A stretch of 32,000 nt of DNA from Candidatus Hadarchaeota archaeon (GCA_964514965.1 CAZETV010000001.1:603063-635062); one strand, 5' to 3'. Numbered from the stretch's first letter, positions 7,698-24,309 are shown. The notes: generated by a model not told the origin, from the sequence alone. Translations and numbers: made by a program.

Positions 7698-9053
7698 TTA
7701 GTCTCGCATGGCATCGCTCAATATTTTTACCGCTTTTTTAGCGATTTCCTCCGCTCGCGACGAGGTCTTTCCTTCCACGGTCACGCGAATGTACGGCTCG
7801 GTACCTGAAGGCCTGACGAGTACCCAACCGCTCTCAAACTCAAGTCTGATACCATCTATAGTGAGAATTTTCTTGACATCAAGAAACTCTCGCTTTGCGT
7901 GAATCTTGAATTTTTTCATTGCGTACGCTTTTTTCTCGTTCGGGCATTCCACCTTTTTCCTCACGGTCGGATACTCCGGCAACATGTCAAGCAATTCTGA
8001 AAGTTTCCTACCAGTTGAATCGAGTAGTTCCAAAATTTTAATCGTCGCGAGAGGCCCGTCTGGCGCAAGGTGAACGCGGGGGAAAATCCATGCACTGCTG
8101 GGCTCCCCGCCGAAGACTGCTTCGTGTTTTTTAATTGCTGCGGCCACGCTGACATCGCCAACACGCGTGCGCAGTACCTTACCGCCCCGATCAGCAACGC
8201 AATCATCAACGACACTTGAAGCATCAACTGTTGTTACCACTACTTCCTTCTCTCGCCTGATTTGATGGGCCGAGATTAACCCTAAGAGCTTGTCGGACTG
8301 GGCAACCCTGCCAAGCTCGTCAACAGCAACGGCTCGGTCCGCATCACCATCATGTGCGATGCCGAGGTCTGCGTCGATTGATTTCACCACGTTGCAGAGC
8401 TCCCCCAAATTCTCGGGTGAGGGCTCGAGCCCGCGACCGGGGAAGAAGCCGTCTAGTTGCGAATTCAACGTCACCACTTTGCAACCCAACTTTCTAAGCA
8501 AGTAAGGAGTCACCACGGAGCCCGCTCCATTGCCGCAGTCAACCACGACTTTGTAGCTCCGCTTTAGCTTGACGGTGCCTAAAATCTCGTCGATGTAGCC
8601 CGGCAGAACATCAATCTTCTCAACTTTGCCTATTCGATCCCAAGCGGAAGGCTTCATCTGCTTGCCGAAGTAAATTCGTTCGATCGCTTCTTCCTGTTCG
8701 GGGGTGTAAGCCATCCCATCACCGCCCCAGAACTTGATCCCGTTGTACTCGGGCGGGTTGTGCGAAGCGGTGACCATAACACCGGCTTTAGCTCTAAACT
8801 GCCGCACCGCGAAGCTCACGGCAGGAGTTGGGACTACACCCAATTTTATAACATCACAACCCCCAGAAAGTAGCCCCGATGTTAAGCAGCTCTCAATCAT
8901 GTCACTGGAAGTGCGGGGGTCTTTGCCAAGGGCGACTCTGCCCTCGCCCCTGAGGTATGTTACAAGCGCTAGACCGAGATCGAGCGCAAGCTCAGGAGTA
9001 ATTTGGTTTCCCACCATGCCTCGAACGCCAGAGGTACCGAAAAGCTTGCGCAT
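7698..9053 (-). CDS. glmM: Phosphoglucosamine mutase / phosphohexomutase
   Basis: MRKLFGTSGVRG. Active-site Ser loop TASHNPPEYNGIKF. Metal loop AHDGDADRAV. Sugar loop GGEPSS. Phosphate-binding RPSGTEP. Confidence 0.87.
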   Translation of the reverse strand: MRKLFGTSGVRGMVGNQITPELALDLGLALVTYLRGEGRVALGKDPRTSSDMIESCLTSGLLSGGCDVIKLGVVPTPAVSFAVRQFRAKAGVMVTASHNPPEYNGIKFWGGDGMAYTPEQEEAIERIYFGKQMKPSAWDRIGKVEKIDVLPGYIDEILGTVKLKRSYKVVVDCGNGAGSVVTPYLLRKLGCKVVTLNSQLDGFFPGRGLEPSPENLGELCNVVKSIDADLGIAHDGDADRAVAVDELGRVAQSDKLLGLISAHQIRREKEVVVTTVDASSVVDDCVADRGGKVLRTRVGDVSVAAAIKKHEAVFGGEPSSAWIFPRVHLAPDGPLATIKILELLDSTGRKLSELLDMLPEYPTVRKKVECPNEKKAYAMKKFKIHAKREFLDVKKILTIDGIRLEFESGWVLVRPSGTEPYIRVTVEGKTSSRAEEIAKKAVKILSDAMRD

Positions 9054-9065
9054 GAAAACCGACTA

Positions 9066-9650
9066 CTACGATGGCTCGGACAAAACCTTCGTTTTCCAAA
9101 CCTCGACTCGCTTAACAGGACAGTATTTCTTTGCTTCTTTATAGATGTCGGCAGAGAGCTTCCCAAGCACGACTTCCTGCACGAATTGGTCGAACGTCCG
9201 CTCCCCAGCTCGGTCTTGAACAACCTTCCGCATATCCCTACGTATTGCTTCGAGCTGCGAACTCTGGACACGACGAAGTGTTGTTATAATCGAGCTAACT
9301 CTAAGCCTGTAACCGTCTTGGGTCGCCACAGTTGAAATATCACTGATGCGCGTCGCCCGCCTGCGAATCTGGCTCCGGATGTAATCGCGAGCCATATCGT
9401 GGCTTATGAAACTGGTGAGCGCGCGGCCCTCCTCAACACCCTTCACTTGGAAGTATAGTTTGATGTGAGACTTCGAGAAGTCCTCGATGAGGTCGCCCAG
9501 CGTAGTCTCAAATATCCGCCCGATAAGCTGACTCGAGTCGGAGGCGAGAGTTTCACCTATCTTTGCGTTGCCGAACATAGGGGGGGCGATGATGTCGTAC
9601 CACCCTTTCTCCCGCCAAGACTTCTTTACGACCCGTTTCTTTTCTTCCAT
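9066..9650 (-). CDS. rps3ae: 30S ribosomal protein S3Ae (eS1)
   Basis: KKSWREKGWYDIIAPPMFG...IGRIFETTLGDL... is a typical eS1 N-terminus. 194 aa. Confidence 0.9.
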   Translation of the reverse strand: MEEKKRVVKKSWREKGWYDIIAPPMFGNAKIGETLASDSSQLIGRIFETTLGDLIEDFSKSHIKLYFQVKGVEEGRALTSFISHDMARDYIRSQIRRRATRISDISTVATQDGYRLRVSSIITTLRRVQSSQLEAIRRDMRKVVQDRAGERTFDQFVQEVVLGKLSADIYKEAKKYCPVKRVEVWKTKVLSEPS

Positions 9651-9795
9651 AATCCCACCTATTGTTTATGAACTGTTTTCAGTGCCTTTCTCTCTTAATG
9701 AACTTAAATAGTTAGTTTTCAAAAAATTTTTGCTAAAATGGATGTTTACAAAGATTTTTAGATGAGGAACAAAATTTATTCGGTGAGGTTTGGCG

Positions 9796-11103
9796 ATGCT
9801 TGATTTAAAATTTGTGCGCAAAAATCCTGACCTTGTAAAAGCAGATTTGACCAAGCGAGGAGACCTAGCAAAAGTAAAGTTGGTCGACAATTTACTGAAA
9901 CACGATGAAAATTGGAGAAAGTTGGCAATAGAAACAAACAAATTGAGGGAAAAGCGCAACAGAATCACTGCGGAAATAGCGAGGCTTAAAAAAGAGAACA
10001 AGGATGTAACGGAGAAAACTAAAGAAGCAAAAAAAATCCCACAAAAAATAAAAAGTCTAGAACAGAAAGTGCAAGACTACAGAAAAAAAATTGATCATAT
10101 ACTCCTTAACCTTCCAAATTTAATGCACGAGTCTGTACCGCTAGGCAAGGACGAAAACGACAACGTCGAAATAAGAAAGTGGGGCGAGATACCCAAATTT
10201 GACTTCACACCAAAAGATCACATCGACCTAGCATTGAATCTCGACCTAGTTGACCTTGAGCGAGCTGCTAGGGTGGCTGGAGCGAGGTTCTATTACCTAA
10301 AGGGAGAACTTGTTCAGTTAAACTATGCCATAATAAAATTTGCACTCGATTTTATCACAAGAAAGGGGTTTGCTCTATTTCAGCCGCCTTACATGCTAAA
10401 GAAGAAACCACTCGAGGGGGCGGTCGCTTTGTCTGATTTTGAGGATACCATCTACAAAATTGAGGGAGAAGACCTCTACATGCTGGCTACTTCTGAGCAC
10501 GCGCTGCTGGCGTTACACATGAATGAGACATTGGATGGAAAAAGCTTGCCGATTAGGTATAGCGGAGTGAGTCCCTGTTTTAGGAAAGAGGCTGGAACCC
10601 ACGGCAGAGATACAAAAGGCATATTTCGGGTTCATCAGTTCGAAAAAGTCGAGCAATTCATCTTCTGTAAACCTGAGGACTCATGGAGACGACACGAGGA
10701 ATTGATTACCAACGCTGAAGAGATATTCCAAAAACTCGGGCTGCCTTACAGAGTAGTGAGCGTTTGCAGCGGCGACATGGGAACGGTAGCAGCGAAAAAA
10801 TACGACCTTGAAACTTGGCTGCCAGGTCAAGGAAAATATCGAGAGGCGGCTTCATGTAGCAATTGCACGTCATACCAAGCCGTCAGATCAAACATAAGAT
10901 ATAGAGACAAAACTGGTGAACCTTCAAAATTCGTTCACACCATAAATAGCACACTGGTGGCCACTGAACGGGTTTTAATATCTATTCTAGAAAACTATCA
11001 GCAGAGGGACGGCTCAATCCTAGTTCCGCCCGCATTGGTGCCATACCTCGGGGCCGAAAAAATAGGTCAGAAATTGGCGACTACAGGATGCTCTCAGCAG
11101 TAG
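9796..11103 (+). CDS. serS: Seryl-tRNA synthetase
   Basis: MLDLKFVRKNPD followed by a long coiled-coil arm. Class II core motifs present: GVSPCFRKEAG, FRVHQFEKVEQF, INSTLVATERVLISILENYQ. ATG 9796 has GGTGAGG 8 nt upstream; the ORF track begins at TTG 9790. Confidence 0.93.
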   Translation: MLDLKFVRKNPDLVKADLTKRGDLAKVKLVDNLLKHDENWRKLAIETNKLREKRNRITAEIARLKKENKDVTEKTKEAKKIPQKIKSLEQKVQDYRKKIDHILLNLPNLMHESVPLGKDENDNVEIRKWGEIPKFDFTPKDHIDLALNLDLVDLERAARVAGARFYYLKGELVQLNYAIIKFALDFITRKGFALFQPPYMLKKKPLEGAVALSDFEDTIYKIEGEDLYMLATSEHALLALHMNETLDGKSLPIRYSGVSPCFRKEAGTHGRDTKGIFRVHQFEKVEQFIFCKPEDSWRRHEELITNAEEIFQKLGLPYRVVSVCSGDMGTVAAKKYDLETWLPGQGKYREAASCSNCTSYQAVRSNIRYRDKTGEPSKFVHTINSTLVATERVLISILENYQQRDGSILVPPALVPYLGAEKIGQKLATTGCSQQ

Positions 11104-15543: not shown

Positions 15544-15656
15544 GTTTGCTCAGTCCACTAGTAAAAAGATTATCGCAATTAAGTTTAACTCTTAAAGATA
15601 GATGGTTGAAGATGTTTAGTTGACGCTTTTCAAATAAAATTAAAAACCGTTGTTAG

Positions 15657-16136: not shown

Positions 16137-16270
16137 TCAACATCCCTCCAACTTTTTTTCCATCCTTGCTTTTTTTATTTGTACGATTAAAAAGTTGTTG
16201 TCTTTAATCTATTTTGAAAATCAGAGTAGTGGATTGATGCCATACATGAGCAGACAACAAAAACGCAACC

Positions 16271-16318
16271 TTTATATAGATTAGTTGCATAGACAACTAA
16301 ATAGTTGCGTTTGCAACT
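16271..16318 (+). promoter_or_regulatory. MarR-MATE promoter: TATA box plus two inverted repeats sharing a TAGTTGC half-site (candidate MarR operators)
   Basis: TTTATATA at 16271-16278. IR1 is TAGTTG-cataga-CAACTA at 16282-16299. IR2 is AGTTGC-gttt-GCAACT at 16303-16318. TAGTTGC recurs with 20-bp spacing (16282 and 16302). Confidence 0.55.
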
Positions 16319-16320
16319 GT

Positions 16321-16776
16321 GTGATATCAACGCCATCAACGAAAAGTGCAAGTAAAATTAGTCATGAATCAGTTGGGAGACTGGCATCCTGCATTTACAG
16401 ATATGGTTTAATCCACATAGGCAATGAATTGAAACCTTACAATATCGGGGGCGGGCAATTTAATTTCTTAATGGTTTTATATCAAAATGATGGAATTAAT
16501 CAAGAAACTCTTGCTCAATCCCTTAAATTAGATAAAGCGACGACTGCACGAGCAATAACAAAGTTGGTTAAAGAGGGCTATGTGGCCCGGCAGAGGGACG
16601 ATTTGGATCTAAGAGCGTACAAACTTTTTCTTACCAAAAAAGCAAAAAAAATAGAGCCCATAATAAAAAAAATATTATCGGGATGGACCGAAACTCTTTT
16701 ATCCGGTTTTACTGAGGACGAAAGAAAATTGTTTTTAGATTTTTTAAAACGAACAGTCCAGAACGCGACATTTTAA
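16321..16776 (+). CDS. MarR-family winged-helix transcriptional regulator
   Basis: QFNFLMVLYQNDGINQETLAQSLKLDKATTARAITKLVKEGYVARQRDDLDLRAYKLFLTKKA is a canonical MarR wHTH. GTG 16321 was chosen because the track start (TTG 16285) lies only 7 nt from the TATA box. The start remains uncertain. Confidence 0.8.
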   Translation: MISTPSTKSASKISHESVGRLASCIYRYGLIHIGNELKPYNIGGGQFNFLMVLYQNDGINQETLAQSLKLDKATTARAITKLVKEGYVARQRDDLDLRAYKLFLTKKAKKIEPIIKKILSGWTETLLSGFTEDERKLFLDFLKRTVQNATF

Positions 16777-16784
16777 AATAGAAA

Positions 16785-18215
16785 ATGGAGACTGCTTTCA
16801 TGAGAGACAGAGAATTTAAAAATAACATTCTCGATTTGCCATCTAAGGAAATAGAGACAGAAGGCGTCAAAACGCTTCTCGGGGAACCTAAAAAAGCCAT
16901 TGTCAAACTTGCAATACCGCTTATAATCGCGATGTCAGTACAAACATTATATAATCTCGTTGATGCAATTTGGGTTTCTGGTCTTGGCGCTGACGCACTC
17001 GCCGCCATCGGCTTTGTATTCCCATTTTACTTTATGGCCATCGCACTTTCTACCGGGATAGGTGTAGGTGTTGGGTCTGCCATATCGCGCAAAATCGGTG
17101 CTAGGGATAAAGAGGGCGCGGACAATGTAGCTGTTCATTCAATAATTATAATGCTGTTACTTACAGTTGTTTTTACCATACCCCTTTTTGTTTTTGCTGG
17201 AGATATTTTTGTCCTAATCGGCGCCGGTAAAACAGCGGGCATGGCCGCGGCCTATGGCAGCGTTATCTTTGCTGGTGGTATCTTTATTTTTTTCAGCAAT
17301 ACAGCTAATTCCATACTCCGGAGTGAAGGGGATGTCAAGAGAGCCATGTATGCCACGATGCTGGGTGCTGGCCTAAATATGGTATTGGACCCGATTTTTA
17401 TCTACACTTTTAACATGGGTGTTGCGGGCGCTGCCTGGGCCACAATCATGTCTTTGAGTGTTACATCTATCCTAATGGCAAACTGGTTATTCCTCAAAAA
17501 GAACACATATGTTTCGTTCAAATTCAGTAATTTCAAATTCAATAAAAACATCGTTAAAGATATTTTTGGAGTTGGGCTTCCGGCTTCAATATCACAGTTG
17601 TCCATGGCGCTCATTATGATAATAATAAACGTCATAATAGTGATGTTGGGGACAGGCAGTACCGATGGAGTAGCGGTATACACAACAGGATGGAGAGTTG
17701 TAACGATAGCAACCCTGCCATTGCTTGGCATCGCCACCGCTGTTGTCCCGGTAAGTGGCGCTGCTTTTGGTGCACGCTCCTTCGAGAAGTTAAAAGTTTC
17801 TCACTTCTATGCCGTGAAGATCGGTGCCATGATAGAGGTAGTTATAGCAGCGGTGACATTCATTTTTGCCCCCCAGATAGCTGCGGTATTCACACAATCT
17901 GAAGGAGCGGCACATATCGCACCCGATTTAATATTTTTCCTTAGAATAATTTGCATTTTTTACCCAGCAGCGGCATTCGGAATGCTTTCTGCTTCGGTTT
18001 TCCAAGGAACTGGAAAGGGGATAAATGCTCTAATCGCCACAATTTTGCGGACGCTTATCCTAACTCCATTATTTGTGGTCGTATTAGCTTTCAGCTTTAA
18101 CATAGGACTGATTGGAATCTGGTTGGGCATAGTCGCGGCAAATATCATTGGTTCAGTAGTAGCATTCTCATGGGCTAGGCTGTACATAGTCAAACTACTA
18201 AGGCCCGCTCCATAA
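16785..18215 (+). CDS. MATE-family multidrug/oligosaccharide efflux transporter
   Basis: 476 aa with about 12 hydrophobic helices. The N-terminal LAIPLIIAMSVQTLYNLVDAIWVSGLG is typical of MATE/NorM-DinF proteins. It starts 8 nt after marR. Confidence 0.87.
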   Translation: METAFMRDREFKNNILDLPSKEIETEGVKTLLGEPKKAIVKLAIPLIIAMSVQTLYNLVDAIWVSGLGADALAAIGFVFPFYFMAIALSTGIGVGVGSAISRKIGARDKEGADNVAVHSIIIMLLLTVVFTIPLFVFAGDIFVLIGAGKTAGMAAAYGSVIFAGGIFIFFSNTANSILRSEGDVKRAMYATMLGAGLNMVLDPIFIYTFNMGVAGAAWATIMSLSVTSILMANWLFLKKNTYVSFKFSNFKFNKNIVKDIFGVGLPASISQLSMALIMIIINVIIVMLGTGSTDGVAVYTTGWRVVTIATLPLLGIATAVVPVSGAAFGARSFEKLKVSHFYAVKIGAMIEVVIAAVTFIFAPQIAAVFTQSEGAAHIAPDLIFFLRIICIFYPAAAFGMLSASVFQGTGKGINALIATILRTLILTPLFVVVLAFSFNIGLIGIWLGIVAANIIGSVVAFSWARLYIVKLLRPAP

Positions 18216-18224
18216 TCGAGGGAT

Positions 18225-19019
18225 TTAGACTGCCGGAGAGAGCCAAATAAGTGCTAATAAGATAATTATAATTGCGATTATTAGCACCGCAGAAATCAAA
18301 AAACGATGCGGTCTAGATTCTTTAACTGGAGTTTCAACAGGTTCTATCCGGCTGCCAGTTTCAACAGGCCCTATACGGCGCCCACTTAAAATGTCCAATA
18401 TCTTCCATCTTTTATCAAGCTCTTCTTTTTCTTTTAGTTTCAAATAGGGTGGATACTCTGGGCAAGGATGACCATCTTTTCTCCATTCATCCATTTCTTT
18501 TGGTTTGCCTTTAAATGGTGGAAGCATGGGAATTTTTGGGTTTAGGTGTTTTTCACAAAAATTTTTCCCGCAATATCTGCATACATGAAGTTTTATTTTT
18601 GTTCTACACGGATGATAGGAACAAACGTTTTTTCGTGGGCGATGTGTTTTAGATTTAACACGATGTCCAGAGCTTTTTTTACTTCCATCAACTACAACCA
18701 CTCCGGAAGGGGGACGCCAAATCCCGATTTCGATTTCAGCTTGTGCTTGCGCATGTTTTCCATCATGTTCTATCGAGATTAGGTGGGCCACTTCATGGGC
18801 GGCCACTTTGTCAATTTGATCGAGAGTAAGTTCTTCGAGCCTCTTTTTCCATATGCAAATAATTCTCTCCTCTATGTGGATGTGTGCTATATCACCTGAA
18901 GAGAAGGGACACGGGTTTTCAGTTATAGAAACACGAGGTGGCGGGTCGAGACCTTTCTCCTCAGAACACCTTCGAACTGCGTTTTCGAAGGCTGTCTTTT
19001 TCATCTCAAATAAACCCAT
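18225..19019 (-). CDS. Tail-anchored protein with a minimal HExxH-x5-H zincin-like domain, an AN1-type zinc finger, a 9-aa tandem repeat and a C-terminal TM helix
   Basis: AAHEVAHLISIEH (residues 73-85, nt about 18765-18797). CSYHPC-x8-CRYC-x4-CEKH...HPC (residues 133-186). RIGPVETGS/RIEPVETPV repeat. C-terminal FLISAVLIIAIIIILLALIWL. GGAGAG lies 6 nt upstream of ATG 19019. Confidence 0.6.
   Translation of the reverse strand: MGLFEMKKTAFENAVRRCSEEKGLDPPPRVSITENPCPFSSGDIAHIHIEERIICIWKKRLEELTLDQIDKVAAHEVAHLISIEHDGKHAQAQAEIEIGIWRPPSGVVVVDGSKKSSGHRVKSKTHRPRKNVCSYHPCRTKIKLHVCRYCGKNFCEKHLNPKIPMLPPFKGKPKEMDEWRKDGHPCPEYPPYLKLKEKEELDKRWKILDILSGRRIGPVETGSRIEPVETPVKESRPHRFLISAVLIIAIIIILLALIWLSPAV
18331..18379. 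repeat. Two copies of a 22-nt direct repeat at 27-nt offset inside the zincin-AN1 gene
   Basis: gtttcaacaggttctatccggc (18331-18352) versus gtttcaacaggccctatacggc (18358-18379) match at 19/22 positions. They encode the 9-aa repeat just before the TM anchor. Confidence 0.8.
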
Positions 19020-19213
19020 TTAACGCTCTCCACAAATTTGGCCATCCTCCACCATCTTTTCTAGTTTGGGGATATTAAATCGGCTCTCATTCTGATATTT
19101 TAACTAATAGCTCGACTTAAATTCTTCAAATCGCATATTTTTTGGGCTTGGAAATGGGCACTTTAAAAGGGTCAAAAAGTCTATCTAAATCCTCGATTTT
19201 ATGCACGGTCAAA

Positions 19214-19702
19214 CTAAAAAATAGAGGTTGGCTGTTTTTGCGGTGATGAAGTTTTTACAATCAGTTCCACCCTTTTTTGTCTAAACAATGCAAATTGTGC
19301 TGAGGACCGACCGAGATTTTCCCTTAGTGAATCTCTCAAATAATGCACCTTGTCTGCATCAGTCTTTCCACACAATACAACAATTACTCCCTCATGGTAA
19401 TCTTTTAAGAAACCGTTGACTTGTCCGACTAGACGATCCGCTTGTGCTTTTCCCTTGAGGTTGAATTTGAGTTCTACACCAACTTTTCTATCAATACCTA
19501 TATCTGCCAAATGTCTACCGGACTCTTTTTGGATGGAATGTTGGCGAGACATTCCCATCCAATCAGGCTTATCAAACTCATTTCTCAAGAATTGGATGAG
19601 TTCGCCCCTGTAACCGTTCTCATTGGTGTACTCTTTTTGTAGTTTCCACCCTTTTATAATTGAATAAACCTTATCGAAAATATTTCCAAATACATCCGCC
19701 AT
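19214..19702 (-). CDS. Small hypothetical protein with PD-(D/E)xK (Hjc/Mrr-like) nuclease-type motif arrangement
   Basis: From ATG 19702 the product is 162 aa. It has a helix with Glu (GELIQFL), then HLADIGIDRKVGVELKF (D67/D71...E77-x-K79), then the helix QADRLVGQVNGF and the strand GVIVVLCG. TTTATATT lies about 35 nt upstream. The track start at 19759 is TTG. Confidence 0.45.
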   Translation of the reverse strand: MADVFGNIFDKVYSIIKGWKLQKEYTNENGYRGELIQFLRNEFDKPDWMGMSRQHSIQKESGRHLADIGIDRKVGVELKFNLKGKAQADRLVGQVNGFLKDYHEGVIVVLCGKTDADKVHYLRDSLRENLGRSSAQFALFRQKRVELIVKTSSPQKQPTSIF

Positions 19703-19829
19703 GACCACCGCCTTGGTTTGATTTTTATTTGATATTTGAAAATATAAAGGTTGTTTCAACTCCCCGGAAAATGTGTACTTTAATTGGGTAATGAGCAGAT
19801 TAGAAAAATTCAGTCTTTTTTAATTTAAA

Positions 19830-20402
19830 CTACTTCTTTAATCGATGATAACCACGGTCTAATTCGCTCAAAAGAATTTTGCCCATATTCATCAATTTTA
19901 CGAATTCATGTTCTGATAATTCTCTTACACCATGGATTGCTTCACTCCGCGCACGCCAAAATGTTTGAGTAAGTATAGCTGAATTACTGTCAATGATGTT
20001 TTTTGAACTCAATGCTGAAACAAGTTCTGACATCGGTTTATATCTTATCCCCGTCAGCCCCAGTTTAGCAGCGATTAAACGCATTCTTTTTTCGATTTCT
20101 ATAGATAACTCTACAAATTTGGCTGTAGGTGTTGTAGCATTTTCCAACATTCTTCTTGTTTCTTTTTCAATTTTAGTTGGAGGCTTTTTCCTTTTCGTAT
20201 ATTCATTGTAAAACTCGGCGCTAAAGAGGGGGGACTTAAACTGTTTAACCCTCGGATGTTGCACGACAATACATACAATAACAATTATGCTTAACGGGAG
20301 TATTGCTTCCCAGTATGTAGTTTGGTGAAAGAGCGGTGGGAAGATTAGGTGTCCAATAAGCAGAGCAAAACAGACAAAAAGTATGCTGTTGATTACGTTC
20401 AT
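19830..20402 (-). CDS. Membrane-anchored (2 N-terminal TM) protein with C-terminal DUF4145/HEPN-like helical domain
   Basis: TM1 is SILFVCFALLIGHLIFPPLF and TM2 is AILPLSIIVIVCIVV. The C-terminal ...SELVSALSSKNIIDSNSAILTQTFWRARSEAIHG... contains R-x4-H. GGTG lies 6 nt upstream of the ATG, which is 21 nt after the upstream stop. Confidence 0.5.
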   Translation of the reverse strand: MNVINSILFVCFALLIGHLIFPPLFHQTTYWEAILPLSIIVIVCIVVQHPRVKQFKSPLFSAEFYNEYTKRKKPPTKIEKETRRMLENATTPTAKFVELSIEIEKRMRLIAAKLGLTGIRYKPMSELVSALSSKNIIDSNSAILTQTFWRARSEAIHGVRELSEHEFVKLMNMGKILLSELDRGYHRLKK

Positions 20403-20423
20403 ATTTGCACCATTAAAATTTAC

Positions 20424-21113
20424 TCATAGAGTTAAAACCTTGTCTCTAATAAAATTCAGATATTCTCTTATTTCGCTATTCGAATAATCTTTAAATTTTT
20501 CATCTCCATGAGCCGCCATAGAACCTAACTGGTAATTGGCCCTTAAGCTGCTTTCAAGAGGTTTTTGGATAATCCCTTTCTGCCTCAATTTGATTATAAC
20601 TTGGTCAAATTTCTTCTCCTCGACTCCTTCCTTTCTGGCGAATTCTCTAACGGTGGTTTCTAAGACAATTCTACCGTAAATCGCTGCCGCTATCCTATGA
20701 CCACTCTCAAGGAACTCAAAAGCTTGTTCAAGCAAATCGCTGAATACCAGAATTTCTCGCTTATAGAATAAATCTTCTGTTAACTCGTTCACCACAGCAT
20801 CTAAAACGTGTTCAAGAATAGCAGTCGCGTTTGCAACATTCTCTTTATAGAATCGGCCACCCCTATATCCAACTTTTTTGCTTATTTCATTCACAAAATC
20901 TTTCAGAAATACAGAGTCTGCGCCAAATCTTAACTTTAGCAAATTGATGGAATCTTGTGACCGTTTTATCGCTCTTGGATATAATTTTACATTTTCAGAT
21001 TGGTTATGAGTAAAATAACTATCTAACTTATCTTCACTGTTTAGTGCCATTGCCAGATTCCTGCCTTCTTTAATAAGATTTGATAGTTTCTCAATTATTT
21101 TTTCATCTCTCAT
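20424..21113 (-). CDS. Soluble all-helical protein with C-terminal DUF4145/HEPN-like domain (paralogous to the C-terminus of the 19830-20402 product)
   Basis: ...GHRIAAAIYGRIVLETTVREFARKEG...FDQVIIKLRQKGIIQKPLESSLRANYQLGSMAAHG... This aligns without gaps over 35 residues to the downstream gene (L-x2-K-x-II-x15-S-x-A-x-HG). Confidence 0.5.
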   Translation of the reverse strand: MRDEKIIEKLSNLIKEGRNLAMALNSEDKLDSYFTHNQSENVKLYPRAIKRSQDSINLLKLRFGADSVFLKDFVNEISKKVGYRGGRFYKENVANATAILEHVLDAVVNELTEDLFYKREILVFSDLLEQAFEFLESGHRIAAAIYGRIVLETTVREFARKEGVEEKKFDQVIIKLRQKGIIQKPLESSLRANYQLGSMAAHGDEKFKDYSNSEIREYLNFIRDKVLTL

Positions 21114-21259
21114 AGATGGACTCCCTCATTTCTCTAATCCCAATGACCAAAATCGCAATAGGTATGTAGTTATCCTCTTTGCCCATCAAATACTGCACCA
21201 ACTTCATCGGCCCCTTATCGCCATCCTAATCTCGGAGTACCCCTTACCTTCCACTCAAC

Positions 21260-23323
21260 CTAATGGTACTCGATTCGCTGGCGAAATTCTTCCTGCTTCC
21301 CAACGTTCCAGTTCTTCACGGGGCGGAAATACCCCACCACGCGAGAGTAAACCTCCGTGACCTTGCCGCAAGAAGGACATTTCGGGTACTCCCCCGGGAT
21401 GAAACCGTGGTCGTCGCAGATGGTGTAGGTTGGCGTCACGGTGAAGTAGGGCAACCGGGTGTTGTGGGAGACCTTGCGGACGAGGTTCATGCAGCTCTCC
21501 CCGTCCTCGAGGCTCTCGCCGAGGAAAATGTGGTGGACCGTCCCTCCCGTGTAGAGCGTCTGCAGCTCCTCCTGGTGCTTCAGGGCCGAAATCAGGTCTA
21601 GGCCGCTGTTGACGGGCAGTAGGGTGGAATTAGTGTAGTAAGGTGCGCGCTCACCGGCAGTTATTATGTCCGAATACTTTCTCTTGTCGATCTTCGCGAG
21701 CCTGTAGCTCACGCCCTCGGCCGGAGTCGCCTCCAGGTTGTAGATGTTGCCGGTCTCCTCCTGGAAGGTCTGGATGCGCCCGAGCATGAACTTGAGAGTC
21801 TTGACGGCGAACTTTTTGCCCTCGTCGGCGGCTATGCTGCAATCGAGCAAGTTCAGGCAGGCCTCGTTCATGCCCACCAGCCCGATGGTCGAAAAGTGGT
21901 TGTTCAAAGTTCCGAGGTAGCGCTTGGTGAAAGGCAGCAGGCCGTTGTCCATGTTTTTCTTCACCCTGTCGCGCTTTGCTTCCAGTGAAATCCGCGACAG
22001 TTCCATTATGTACCCAAGCTTCTCGAAAAACTCGTCCTCGCTCTTGGAAAGGTAACCCAGGCGGGGCATGTTTATCGTCACGACTCCCACCGAACCGGTC
22101 GAGTCTCCCGAGCCGAATAGCCCGCCCGTCACGTTTCTCCTCAGCTCCGCCAACTCGAGACGGAGGTGGCAACACATCGAGCGAACGTCACTCGGCCTCA
22201 GGTCGCTGTTGATGAAGTTCTGGAAGTAGGGCAGCCCGTACTTCGCGGTCATCTCGAACAGCGCCGACGAAATGCCGTTGTCCCACTCGAAGTCCTTGGT
22301 CAAATTGTAGGTGGGTATTGGGAAGGTGAAAGGTCGCCCGTTCATGTCGCCTTCCATCATGACTTCCATGAGCGCGCGGTTTATCATCCCCATTTCTTCC
22401 GTGTATTCCTCGTAGGTGTTCTCGCCCAGCTTGCCGCCGATTGTCACGTGCTGGCCCGCGAGGTCCTCCGGGACGGTCAGGTCGAGCGTGATATTAGTGA
22501 ACGGCGTCTGCCCGCCCCAGCGCGAGGCGATATTGAGGTTGAACACGAAAGTCTGCATCGCCTGCTTTATCTTTCTGTAGTCGAGCCCATCCTTGCGAAC
22601 GAAAGGTGCGAGAAGTGTATCGATGGAATTGAAGGCCTGCGCTCCGGCCCACTCGTTCTGCAGGCTGCCTATGAAGTTCGCCATTTGGAGCAGAGCCGTG
22701 TCGAGGTGGGCTGGGGGCCTTGACGCGACCTTACTGGAGACGCCGTTGAACCCCTCCGCTAAAAGCTGGTTGAGAGACCAGCCGGCGCAATAGCCTGTTA
22801 TCCCCATGCCCAAGTCGTGGACATGGAAATCTCCGTGAACGTGCGCATCCGCAACCTCCATGGGGTAGACCCTGTCGAGCGTGTAGTTCGCAATTACCGA
22901 GCCAGCGATGTGAAGCAGCAAGCCCGAAAGAGAGTAACCCACATTGCTGTTCTCTTTGACCCTCCAGTCCTGCATGCCCAGATAATCATCAACTATATTT
23001 TCGACTTCGAGGAACGTGGACTTGAGTTTCCTCATCTCTTCGTGCTGCTTTCGATAGAGGATGTACGCCTTGGCGGTCCTCGCATGACCTCGCTCGATCA
23101 AGACTTTTTCCACCACGTCTTGAATATCCTCAACGTTCGGGATTTCGCTGGCGTATTTTTCTTCCAAAACTTTTACAACTTCATTAGACAACCTTTCTGC
23201 TATTCTTCTGTCTCGCCCACCGACCTCGACCGCAGCCGCAAAAATCGCATTGATGACGCGCTCTTGGTCGAAATCCACTATCCTACCATCGCGCTTGCGC
23301 ACTTTTTTGATGATCGCGCTCAT
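21260..23323 (-). CDS. nrdD: Anaerobic ribonucleoside-triphosphate reductase (class III RNR), with N-terminal ATP-cone
   Basis: ATP-cone KVRKRDGRIVDFDQERVINAI. Catalytic core motifs around SMCCHLRL. C-terminal Zn ribbon CDDHG...CPSCG. Glycyl-radical motif YSRVVGYFRPV. Confidence 0.94.
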   Translation of the reverse strand: MSAIIKKVRKRDGRIVDFDQERVINAIFAAAVEVGGRDRRIAERLSNEVVKVLEEKYASEIPNVEDIQDVVEKVLIERGHARTAKAYILYRKQHEEMRKLKSTFLEVENIVDDYLGMQDWRVKENSNVGYSLSGLLLHIAGSVIANYTLDRVYPMEVADAHVHGDFHVHDLGMGITGYCAGWSLNQLLAEGFNGVSSKVASRPPAHLDTALLQMANFIGSLQNEWAGAQAFNSIDTLLAPFVRKDGLDYRKIKQAMQTFVFNLNIASRWGGQTPFTNITLDLTVPEDLAGQHVTIGGKLGENTYEEYTEEMGMINRALMEVMMEGDMNGRPFTFPIPTYNLTKDFEWDNGISSALFEMTAKYGLPYFQNFINSDLRPSDVRSMCCHLRLELAELRRNVTGGLFGSGDSTGSVGVVTINMPRLGYLSKSEDEFFEKLGYIMELSRISLEAKRDRVKKNMDNGLLPFTKRYLGTLNNHFSTIGLVGMNEACLNLLDCSIAADEGKKFAVKTLKFMLGRIQTFQEETGNIYNLEATPAEGVSYRLAKIDKRKYSDIITAGERAPYYTNSTLLPVNSGLDLISALKHQEELQTLYTGGTVHHIFLGESLEDGESCMNLVRKVSHNTRLPYFTVTPTYTICDDHGFIPGEYPKCPSCGKVTEVYSRVVGYFRPVKNWNVGKQEEFRQRIEYH

Positions 23324-23341
23324 AATGAACTCACCTTACGC

Positions 23342-23590
23342 TCACGATACTCTGCAAACAAAACTCAATTTGTCAAAGTTCCCGCACTGCAAGCAAACAT
23401 TGATATTACCTCTTTGCTCGGAGTCGACCTTCGCACAACCTGTTCTATTCAATAAATTGTGTTGTTTCCCATCAACAAATTCGACCGCTCCCTCCACATC
23501 ATCTTGCCTCAGCAGCTTAGCCATTTTTCTAACTCTTTCGGCCACTATTCTTCTGTTCCTCAAGCTGACTTTTTTGATGGCCTCGCTCAT
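23342..23590 (-). CDS. Hypothetical 82-aa protein embedded in the nrd operon (four Cys, including CLQC)
   Basis: Its ATG overlaps the nrdG stop (ATGA at 23590-23587). Its stop lies 18 nt before the nrdD ATG, which has its own GGTGA site. I recognise no family. Confidence 0.45.
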   Translation of the reverse strand: MSEAIKKVSLRNRRIVAERVRKMAKLLRQDDVEGAVEFVDGKQHNLLNRTGCAKVDSEQRGNINVCLQCGNFDKLSFVCRVS

Positions 23591-24309
23591 GCTGATCTCA
23601 CACCTCTCACCTTACATGCCTGGAAATTGGGGGCGATTTGCTTCTGAAGTTCCTGAAGAAATCCGAGCGGGCAAGGTGCAATGTTAGAATATTTCTCATC
23701 AACGTGGGGGCCATTGGACTTGAACTGTTGAAGGAAATATTTTTTCGCGTTTTTTATCTGCTGTGTGATGAGCGCGATGTCGTCTTTGCTTGTTAGCCCG
23801 GGCACCACCGTGGTCCTAAACTCGTAATCTAATCCGTTCGAACCTCGGAGCAACTCGATGCTCTTCTCAACATCTCCCAGTGCCCCGTTTACATGAATAC
23901 CGACCACCGCTTGGTACTTATCCTCAACGAGGGGCGCTTTCACATCCATCGCGACGTAATCAACGAGGTGTTTTTCGAGCAGCTCCACCAGCATTTTCGG
24001 GTTAGACCCGTTCGTGTCGAGCTTGACGCTGTACCCCAATTTTTTCACTTTTTCCAGAAAACTCGGTAAGTCTGGATGAATGGTCGGCTCGCCGCCGGTT
24101 ATTTCCAATCCATCCAACCAATCCTTATTTTTCTCCAAATATTCCAAAACTTCTTCCTCAGATATGGACGGCAAAGTTTGGTGATTCAAAACTAGGTCTC
24201 GGTTGTAACAAAAACCGCACCTAAAGTTGCATCCTCCTACAAACACAATGGCAACAATTTTCCCTGGGTAATCGAGTAGAGAAACTTTTTGAAATCCTTT
24301 AAATTCCAT
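23587..24309 (-). CDS. nrdG: Anaerobic ribonucleotide reductase activating protein (radical SAM activase)
   Basis: SLLDYPGKIVAIVFVGGCNFRCGFCYN (CxxxCxxC cluster) and ...LEITGGEPTIH... are typical of NrdG/PflA-type activases. Confidence 0.9.
   Translation of the reverse strand: MEFKGFQKVSLLDYPGKIVAIVFVGGCNFRCGFCYNRDLVLNHQTLPSISEEEVLEYLEKNKDWLDGLEITGGEPTIHPDLPSFLEKVKKLGYSVKLDTNGSNPKMLVELLEKHLVDYVAMDVKAPLVEDKYQAVVGIHVNGALGDVEKSIELLRGSNGLDYEFRTTVVPGLTSKDDIALITQQIKNAKKYFLQQFKSNGPHVDEKYSNIAPCPLGFLQELQKQIAPNFQACKVRGVRSA

Follow-up and report, generated by a model that had tools for sequence, protein, structure and literature searches.

A hypervariable, AT-rich accessory locus between the flavodoxin and nrdD genes of a Candidatus Hadarchaeota archaeon carries divergent HEPN and putative nuclease cargo

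We analysed a 32,000-nucleotide stretch of the genome of a Candidatus Hadarchaeota archaeon (GCA_964514965.1, CAZETV010000001.1:603063-635062; hereafter the window), in which four consecutive minus-strand open reading frames (ORFs), here called p1 to p4, lie next to nrdD. An earlier note, made from the sequence alone, had described them as an AT-rich four-gene islet bounded by a MATE exporter gene and nrdD, and as a candidate defence or stress module. All four ORFs are present exactly as claimed (Table 1), and the four G+C counts made by hand in the note were exact on recount. The islet (18225-21259) has a G+C content of 0.384 compared to 0.479 for the window, which ranks 5th from the bottom among 580 equally long sliding windows. 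The AT-rich zone runs leftward past the genes for MATE (G+C 0.439) and a MarR-family regulator (0.364) to 16203. Since the low G+C and the variable segment described below both continue through MATE, MATE is part of the cargo and not a boundary. The spacers of 194 and 146 nt had been called unusually long; they exceed the median gap of 57.5 nt but rank just 4th and 8th of 34. For p2, the ATG at 19702 is the start favoured by its 22 homologues. No tRNA genes were detected in the window and no Rfam RNA family matched it, and no integrase was found among the flanking proteins scanned, in keeping with the statement that no tRNA or integrase is visible. The islet is therefore real as an accessory AT-rich block. 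What needs correction is where it ends, whether it forms a single module, and the statement that it lacks repeats.

Table 1. Features of the variable locus; positions are counted from the first nucleotide of the window.
Feature	Positions	Strand	Details
p1 ORF	18225-19019	minus	264 aa
p2 ORF	19214-19759	minus	181 aa from TTG; 19214-19702 gives 162 aa from ATG
p3 ORF	19830-20402	minus	190 aa
p4 ORF	20424-21113	minus	229 aa
MarR-family regulator	16285-16776	plus	Pfam MarR 8.1e-14; variable cargo, beyond the coordinates of the earlier note
MATE efflux transporter	16785-18215	plus	Pfam MatE 5.9e-55; variable cargo
Hypervariable segment between conserved flavodoxin and nrdD	16203-21234		G+C 0.395; delimited by blastn homology breaks
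Spacer from nrdD stop to p4 start	21114-21259		Common to L003 within the 20426-23335 alignment
Junction motif copy A	19139-19178	plus	p2-p1 spacer; TTTTGGGCTTGG-AAATGGGCACTTTAAAAGGGTCAAAA; blastn to L001, L002
Junction motif copy B	about 19765-19791	plus	p3-p2 spacer; GGAAAATGTGTACTTTAATTGGGTAA, degenerate; from alignment

The protein p4 consists of an N-terminal all-helical domain and a C-terminal DUF4145 domain. DUF4145 is a divergent HEPN domain of the HEPN superfamily (Anantharaman et al. 2013, PMC3710099), and its catalytic motif is conserved in just about 80% of DUF4145 proteins (PMC3710099). p4 scored above the gathering threshold of PF13643 (24.6 vs 23.1 bits, residues 130-221) and matched the DUF4145 family phrog_1305 (7e-10), and precomputed PF13643 matches exist for many members of its family. 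The predicted model (predicted local distance difference test, pLDDT, 91) is all-helical with two domains, and the closest PDB folds of its C-terminal half are the HEPN proteins HepT, SSO, ST0689, TM0613 and AF0298 (top matches 6m6w, 2q00, 1wol, 1o3u and 2hsb; probability 0.96-0.99, target TM-score 0.53-0.67, Foldseek E 0.3-0.9). A profile of the p4 family gave no relevant match to PDB sequences, no p4 relatives were found in IMG/VR, and a Foldseek search of viral models returned one probable DUF4145 match and nothing else useful. The PF13643 match and the HEPN-like fold bear out the suggestion that p4 is a DUF4145-type HEPN protein. Residues R191, Y194, G197 and H202 are invariant in the family.

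The nearest characterised counterpart of p4 is RAZR (PD-T7-4), a bacterial single-protein abortive-infection system whose DUF4145 domain is an active RNase that requires R146 and H154 for defence (PMC13017515). Like p4, RAZR is a stand-alone accessory gene product with a C-terminal DUF4145 domain behind an N-terminal putative sensor (PMC13017515), and both share a conserved histidine (H202 in p4). In contrast, the N-terminus of RAZR is a Cys4 zinc ribbon and that of p4 a helical domain of roughly 110 residues without a cysteine cluster. p4 also gave no match to the PADLOC PD-T7-4 model, has an invariant tyrosine at the position of the catalytic arginine, and is archaeal, often with the membrane partner p3.

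For p3, hydropathy supports two N-terminal transmembrane helices. The motif R152-x4-H157 (AR[SN]EAIHG) of its C-terminal domain, which conforms to the HEPN Rx4-6H motif, is invariant in all five cluster representatives of this rare family; because they share 65-86% identity, its invariance is weak evidence. No match to p3 was found in Pfam, PADLOC, NCBIfam or PHROGs, and its profile found nothing relevant in PDB. The earlier note had regarded p3 and p4 as carriers of two paralogous DUF4145/HEPN-like domains, a relationship that was not significant by BLASTP (E 0.44), by hhalign profile-profile comparison (E 0.11) or by a local hidden Markov model. In architecture, p3 resembles membrane-associated HEPN proteins, which combine transmembrane helices with a cytoplasmic helical domain carrying Rx4H and have been proposed to cleave RNA at the membrane in response to a stimulus (PMC3710099). 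Unlike p3, which is archaeal and has two transmembrane helices, the DUF4145-transmembrane group is bacterial and has a single helix and a WP signature (PMC3710099); p3 also lacks a significant match to DUF4145 or any HEPN model.

The third protein, p2, has the invariant residues E28, E60, D67, E77-x-K79 (E77-L-K79) and Q94 in 22 homologues. These include the PD-(D/E)xK core motif, with D67 and E77/K79 at predicted strands 68-70 and 74-80, and the AlphaFold model (pLDDT 81) has an alpha-beta-beta-beta-alpha-beta core. Its nearest PDB folds are NucS/EndoMS, Can2, AF1548, PspGI, XPF and MUS81, all weak matches (best E 0.01, probability 0.89, query TM-score 0.36-0.40). The p2 sequence had no match in Pfam, NCBIfam, PADLOC or PDB, and profile matches to designed repeat proteins in PDB were spurious. 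With the C-terminal domain of NucS/EndoMS, with AF1548 and with the nuclease domain of Can2, p2 shares the E...D...ExK signature, and its predicted fold comes nearest to theirs; unlike them, it has no N-terminal DNA-binding or CARF domain, and the structural matches are weak. The invariant motif, together with the weak fold matches, agrees with the earlier nuclease call, and p2 is a candidate stand-alone PD-(D/E)xK-type nuclease encoded by an independent accessory gene.

The family of the fourth protein, p1, is large, with 486 representatives at E<=1e-3. The residues H75, E76, H79 and H85 of its HExxHx5H motif are invariant in 40 diverse family members, as are the finger ligands C133, C138, C147, C150, C155, H158 and H184; C186 is present in at least 90% of sequences. 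WLM matches 23 of the 40 members at E<=0.01 and zf-AN1 matches 24 of the 40, best 3.6e-8. p1 alone stays below the Pfam thresholds (WLM 14.2 vs 26 bits; zf-AN1 20.6 vs 27.9 bits). The family profile matched selecase MJ1213 (4.9e-6), HtpX (8.5e-6) and Wss1 (1e-4), which are minigluzincins (PMC4559962), and the HExxHx5H motif is shared with Wss1/SPRTN (WLM/SprT), selecase MJ1213 and the HtpX catalytic domain. Unlike minigluzincins, p1 also has a C-terminal membrane anchor (residues 235-264) and an AN1-like finger, in which 25 extra residues separate the ligands H158 and H184. No DNA-binding or SUMO/ubiquitin-binding modules were detected in p1, and a literature search found no report of WLM combined with AN1 in archaea. 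Family motif, profile matches and hydropathy agree with the zincin, zinc finger and transmembrane segment proposed earlier, suggesting that p1 is a membrane-anchored minigluzincin/WLM-like zinc peptidase with an AN1-like zinc finger, encoded by an independent accessory gene. The linker before the anchor contains a tandem 27-nt duplication (18330-18383, 81% identity) encoding a repeated G-x-x-I-x-P-V-E-T peptide.

The interval was compared with the corresponding loci of related Hadesarchaea/Hadarchaeota metagenome-assembled genomes (MAGs), of which L003 and L004 share 94-95% NrdD identity with the window and a third, L083, 94%. By blastn, homology with L003, L004, L083 and L084 breaks at 16202, just upstream of flavodoxin, and resumes at 21235-21249, just past the nrdD stop, or at 20426 in L003, which shares p4. 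These breaks define the variable segment. The same nrdD-flavodoxin gap holds different cargo in these four close relatives. L003 carries p4 (87% aa identity), a convergent gene for a 318-aa Rx4H protein, DUF2284 fragments, and genes for a 227-aa protein and a matrixin-like peptidase. L004 carries a TIR_2 protein with a transmembrane helix, a 128-aa protein and an EamA transporter; the TIR protein (1916-2395) has 159 aa, a C-terminal transmembrane helix, a Pfam TIR_2 match at 3.9e-16 and a ThsB-like match in PADLOC at 8.8e-6. L083 and L084 carry two small transmembrane proteins, p1, a 161-aa Rx4H protein, a 379-aa protein with multiple transmembrane helices, and DUF2284. MarR and MATE have no counterpart at this locus in the relatives, and tblastn and blastn searches of MATE against L003, L004 and L083 were empty. 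The nrdD-flavodoxin locus is thus a hotspot of gene turnover. Its contents differ from relative to relative. The block is accessory and variable, as had been proposed, and defence-type cargo is found at the same place in a relative, namely the TIR_2 protein of L004.

The four genes were then considered as a unit. A single coherent four-gene defence or stress system, in which a protease, a nuclease and two HEPN-like proteins act together, would agree with the arrangement of the genes, which are adjacent, on the same strand and all AT-rich, and with domain types that are common in immunity systems. All four were found together in no other locus examined, and p1, p2 and p4 each recur without the others. 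The p4 family has 71 cluster representatives, some of them in MAGs labelled Thermodesulfobacteriota and Nanoarchaeota. p4 occurs without p3, p2 and p1 in L003 at the same locus, in L001/L002, another archaeon, beside three ORFans, and in L116 beside ParE/MazE, RadC and a DEAD helicase. p1 occurs at the same locus in L083/L084 with 92.8% nucleotide identity and unrelated neighbours. The p2 family (22 cluster representatives) is found in L088 behind a different Rx4H protein and a 410-aa protein with multiple transmembrane helices, in L094/L095 within an ORFan island, and in L089-L093 (8001-8504, 63% identity) convergent to a solo 437-aa Cas1 (8517-9830). The L089-L093 homologues also lie near a PDDEXK_19-HTH protein gene and overlap a 53-aa upstream ORF by one base; their solo Cas1 is possibly casposase-like.

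The pair at 19830-21113, p4-p3, does recur, and it is the sole recurrent pair among the four genes. p3 lies downstream of a p4 homologue in L086, L087 (= L100) and L096; its upstream neighbour in L085 is a 154-aa protein with a weak resemblance to the N-terminal domain of p4 alone (hhalign E 0.018). The 21-nt gap between p4 and p3 in the window fits an operon. The islet is therefore made of separately inherited units and is not one four-gene system. The co-occurrence data largely refute the four-gene reading, and spacers of 127-194 nt that carry junction repeats, units that differ in divergence history and the absence of a PADLOC match also tell against it, so that we regard it as very improbable. 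Elsewhere in the cargo, small Rx4H proteins (QIRCNLFHG, VRNNYAHN) recur with a large protein with multiple transmembrane helices (L083 7521-9169, L088 118-2121, L103 5913-6401). This suggests that p4-p3 is one version of a broader theme of HEPN-like and membrane-protein pairs.

To compare cargo with core genes, we used synonymous divergence (dS). The dS of nrdD is 0.41 against L003 and 0.43 against L083, and that of flavodoxin 0.47 against L083. The closest cargo comparisons gave values of 0.10-0.16, below those flanking core genes at 0.41-0.47: p4 against L003, 0.16; p1 against L083, 0.13; p2 against L088, 0.10. These values indicate that the exchange of units among related lineages postdates the divergence of the core genes. 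Against the same contig, L087, the dS of p3 is 0.36 and that of p4 is 1.11, a threefold difference indicating that alleles recombined even within the pair. The ratio of nonsynonymous to synonymous divergence (dN/dS) is 0.08-0.48 overall, so all four are real, functional genes under purifying selection. That selection is more relaxed in the closest cargo comparisons (0.43-0.48) than in core genes (0.08-0.13).

Generic repeat finding revealed no long flanking repeats in the window. A cross-locus blastn of the window against other p4 loci gave a 40-nt match at 19139-19178, and subsequent alignment defined a junction motif of 30-45 nt with the core GGAAAATGGGCACTTTAAYTGGGTCAAAAG, conserved from about -11 to +33 around the core and at background beyond. 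The 32-kb window contains two copies, both within the islet, compared to a chance expectation of 0.00 for the 24-nt core. An ungapped pattern search misses them, since a single nucleotide is deleted in copy A. No copy lies in any of the remaining intergenic regions of the window, the nrdD-p4 spacer included. As both copies are on the plus strand, p2 is flanked by direct copies, and the statement in the earlier note that no flanking direct repeats are visible does not hold. Nor does its view that nothing marks mobility, given the conserved junction repeats and a cargo dS below that of core genes.

The motif occupies similar places in other loci. It lies after p4 and on either side of the 318-aa gene in L003 (12940, 13987), directly after the TIR gene in L004 (2418), after p1 in L083 (7410), after p3 in L087 (1711) and L096, between the gene for the transmembrane protein and p2 in L088 (2162), and on either side of the three-ORFan block in L001 (10906, 14006); L096-L113 also carry it. 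Homology breakpoints coincide with it: window-L088 homology spans 19173-19789, with 19173 inside copy A, and window-L087 homology begins at 19765. At the other end, the homology of the window with p4 loci other than L003 ends at 21131. A metagenome scan by exact 26-mer match, a selection that inflates apparent conservation, found the motif on 18 contigs, 7 of which have 2-3 copies. In all multi-copy loci (the window, L001, L003 and the 7 metagenome contigs) the copies are on one strand, 0.2-4 kb apart. Its 3' side faces a converging stop codon within 119 nt in 16 of 28 cases, and in 14 of these the distance is 20-55 nt; the remaining 12 cases have a gene start on that side, at variable distance. 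The motif therefore marks unit junctions, and its role may be that of a recombination site, a regulatory site bound by a factor or a 3' element shared by the genes.

Other identities were considered for the motif. An attC-like hairpin or structured RNA was rejected, as the motif folds like shuffled sequences and has no Rfam match. A tRNA-derived attachment (att) site is unlikely, with no tRNA gene in the window and no T-arm-like segment by eye, and so is a miniature inverted-repeat transposable element, with a conserved part of about 45 nt and no terminal inverted repeats seen. A general promoter or terminator is unlikely because the motif is absent from the other intergenic regions of the window and its orientation is mixed.

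The cargo next to the motif on metagenome contigs is almost all singletons. It includes DUF4145, ApeA-HEPN, HNH-HhH, transglutaminase-like, PrsW, LAGLIDADG, beta-propeller and DUF3795 proteins. Defence-type neighbours at the locus or the motif include the TIR-transmembrane protein, ApeA-HEPN, AbiV-HEPN, DUF4145, a PLD nuclease and an HNH nuclease. L110 (586-6765) is a clear defence island, with the gene order tyrosine recombinase (PF00589, 36.3 bits), VRR-NUC-like protein, motif, ApeA-HEPN (ApeA_NTD1+HEPN_Apea 9e-60), NgoFVII-like PLD nuclease and AbiV-HEPN (HEPN_AbiV 3e-20). Paired small genes (about 85-94 aa and 84-87 aa) are also found near the motif in L096 (2473-3000), L106 (12766-13332) and L108 (2595-3123). 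They resemble toxin-antitoxin pairs in size and pairing, and a Pfam scan of the L106 pair gave no match.

One alternative is that the islet is a decayed provirus or integrative plasmid, with repeats that would be att remnants of successive integrations by a tyrosine recombinase now lost or encoded elsewhere. Low G+C, same-strand repeats that bound units and cargo dS below that of core genes are all consistent with such an origin, as are p2 homologues beside a solo Cas1 and in ORFan islands and the Phage_integrase protein that L110 encodes 1.1 kb from the motif. However, neither an integrase nor a tRNA or viral hallmark gene was found in the window, none of the other loci examined has a homologue of the L110 integrase, PHROGs yields the DUF4145 family phrog_1305 alone, and IMG/VR contains neither p4 relatives nor the motif. 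The units between repeats have 1-3 genes, far below the size of a virus or plasmid. We therefore consider a decayed element improbable.

The organisation of the locus is reminiscent of integron cassette arrays, including archaeal integrons (Ghaly et al. 2022, PMC9668308), and of pdif modules. It shares with them small, diverse units of 1-3 genes, repeats in the same orientation, a repeat that closely follows a stop codon (16 of 28 cases), and cargo that includes toxin and defence-type genes. Unlike integrons, no integron integrase is found among the flanking proteins or linked generally to the motif, which is conserved in sequence and not in structure, forms no attC-like hairpin and has no inverted recombinase-binding arms; gene orientation is mixed. 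A bolder proposal is that the motif is the recombination site of an undescribed Hadesarchaea gene-cassette exchange system, which would shuffle units of 1-3 genes among several chromosomal hotspots; immunity genes of the HEPN, TIR or nuclease type would make up many of these units. The outcome would be integron-like and the mechanism different, with a sequence-defined site, no hairpin and a recombinase encoded elsewhere, and p4-p3 would be carried as a new two-component, membrane-coupled HEPN immune module. We put this forward tentatively and think it rather unlikely.

Our preferred reading, which we hold to be probable, is that the segment is a 5-kb hypervariable mosaic of separately exchanged units, with p4-p3 as a candidate HEPN RNase toxin pair. 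The mosaic comprises at least four units (MarR+MATE, p1, p2 and p4+p3), and the junction sequence would be either the site at which units are swapped or a hitch-hiking landmark. Most likely, p4-p3 would work as an abortive-infection toxin with HEPN RNase activity, kept silent until the N-terminal domain of p4 or the membrane-bound p3 receives a cue from a virus or the envelope. Once triggered, it would cleave cellular RNA, and growth would stop. A defence or toxin role for p4-p3 is plausible. In PADLOC (PADLOC-DB 2.0) none of the four proteins had a convincing match, which agrees with the statement that the combination corresponds to no named system.

Several observations weigh against the mosaic and toxin-pair reading. 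PADLOC gave no match for p2, p3 or p4, with none for p4 even at E<=1; its sole match, p1 to DrmA (E 0.0034, 13 bits), falls on the zincin/zinc-finger stretch and is not convincing. The invariant tyrosine of p4, Y194, stands eight residues before H202 at the position of RAZR R146, with R191 eleven before H202, and because it replaces the canonical arginine, p4 catalysis is uncertain. Homology of p3 to HEPN is unproven and has no statistical support in the sequence comparisons. A p4 homologue in L114 lies in a housekeeping setting, among ribosomal, tRNA-synthetase and FEN1 genes, with no p3, p2 or p1. As to exchange, no recombinase domain was found among the 16 flanking window proteins scanned, a recombinase lies near the motif in just 1 of about 27 motif-bearing loci (L110), and no homologue of it was found in the other loci examined. 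The motif has no consistent orientation with respect to genes, its folding does not surpass that of shuffled sequences (z -0.85 to +1.33), and its apparent conservation is inflated by the exact-match selection mentioned above. Finally, a large share of the cargo beside the motif has no defence-like character (beta-propeller, PrsW, transglutaminase, PAP2, transporters); the hotspot is a general accessory site.

A serious rival is that the genes are lineage-specific accessory genes without an immunity role, gathered in a permissive intergenic site. p1 could then be a membrane proteostasis or stress protease, p4/p3 could act in RNA turnover or regulation, and p2 could be a repair-type nuclease. 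The p1 family is large, and the peptidases related to it, Wss1, HtpX and selecase, serve in housekeeping or stress (PMC4559962); the L114 homologue of p4, the non-defence cargo at motif sites, the MarR-MATE pair in the same segment and the lack of PADLOC matches all fit this explanation. On the other hand, HEPN-type, TIR and nuclease genes recur at the locus and beside the motif, turnover is rapid, the dN/dS of 0.43-0.48 exceeds that of core genes, and the stand-alone DUF4145 protein RAZR is an abortive-infection effector (PMC13017515). A purely non-immune role is thus somewhat unlikely, though less so than any of the other alternatives. We class the islet as a defence/accessory island with divergent HEPN and putative nuclease cargo.

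The 16 flanking proteins scanned have ordinary assignments, namely Kae1, a 2-hydroxyacid dehydrogenase, a B12-radical SAM protein, an Obg-like GTPase, a sugar nucleotidyltransferase, a phosphoglucomutase, SerRS, a DHH phosphoesterase, PiT, a PhoU-like protein, dCTP deaminase, flavodoxin, NrdG, an HxlR-type regulator, MarR and MatE. The flavodoxin-dcd interval is 113 nt in the window (15544-15656) compared to 5.7 kb in L083 (10486-16212), where it holds genes for an OB-fold/SSB-like protein, TBP, an MFS transporter, an ABC transporter and a polysaccharide deacetylase; it is a second variable spot adjoining the first. On the other side, the nrdG-nrdD gap is 263 nt, of which ~232 nt (23336-23567) are missing from L003 and L083, where nrdG and nrdD abut. 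This insert is flanked by a 60-nt imperfect direct repeat of 72% identity (23275-23334, 23542-23601), and it contains an 82-aa ORF (23342-23590, minus strand) whose N-terminus duplicates that of NrdD. It has the appearance of a small insertion or duplication.

The Hadesarchaea, archaea of the deep subsurface, are uncultured, and their mobile genes and immunity are almost uncharted. The present results indicate that their small genomes contain defined hotspots, at which single genes and pairs swap between lineages faster than the core diverges, and that genes of the HEPN, TIR and nuclease types are part of their cargo. With the p4 family, the DUF4145-type HEPN proteins gain archaeal members in which the sensor domain differs, the active-site arginine is altered and, in some lineages, a partner protein sits in the membrane. 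How the hotspot is maintained can be tested through the junction repeat. If this repeat only regulates or terminates transcription, the islet is an accessory island of the ordinary kind; if it is a recombination site, it would point to a new mechanism of cassette exchange.

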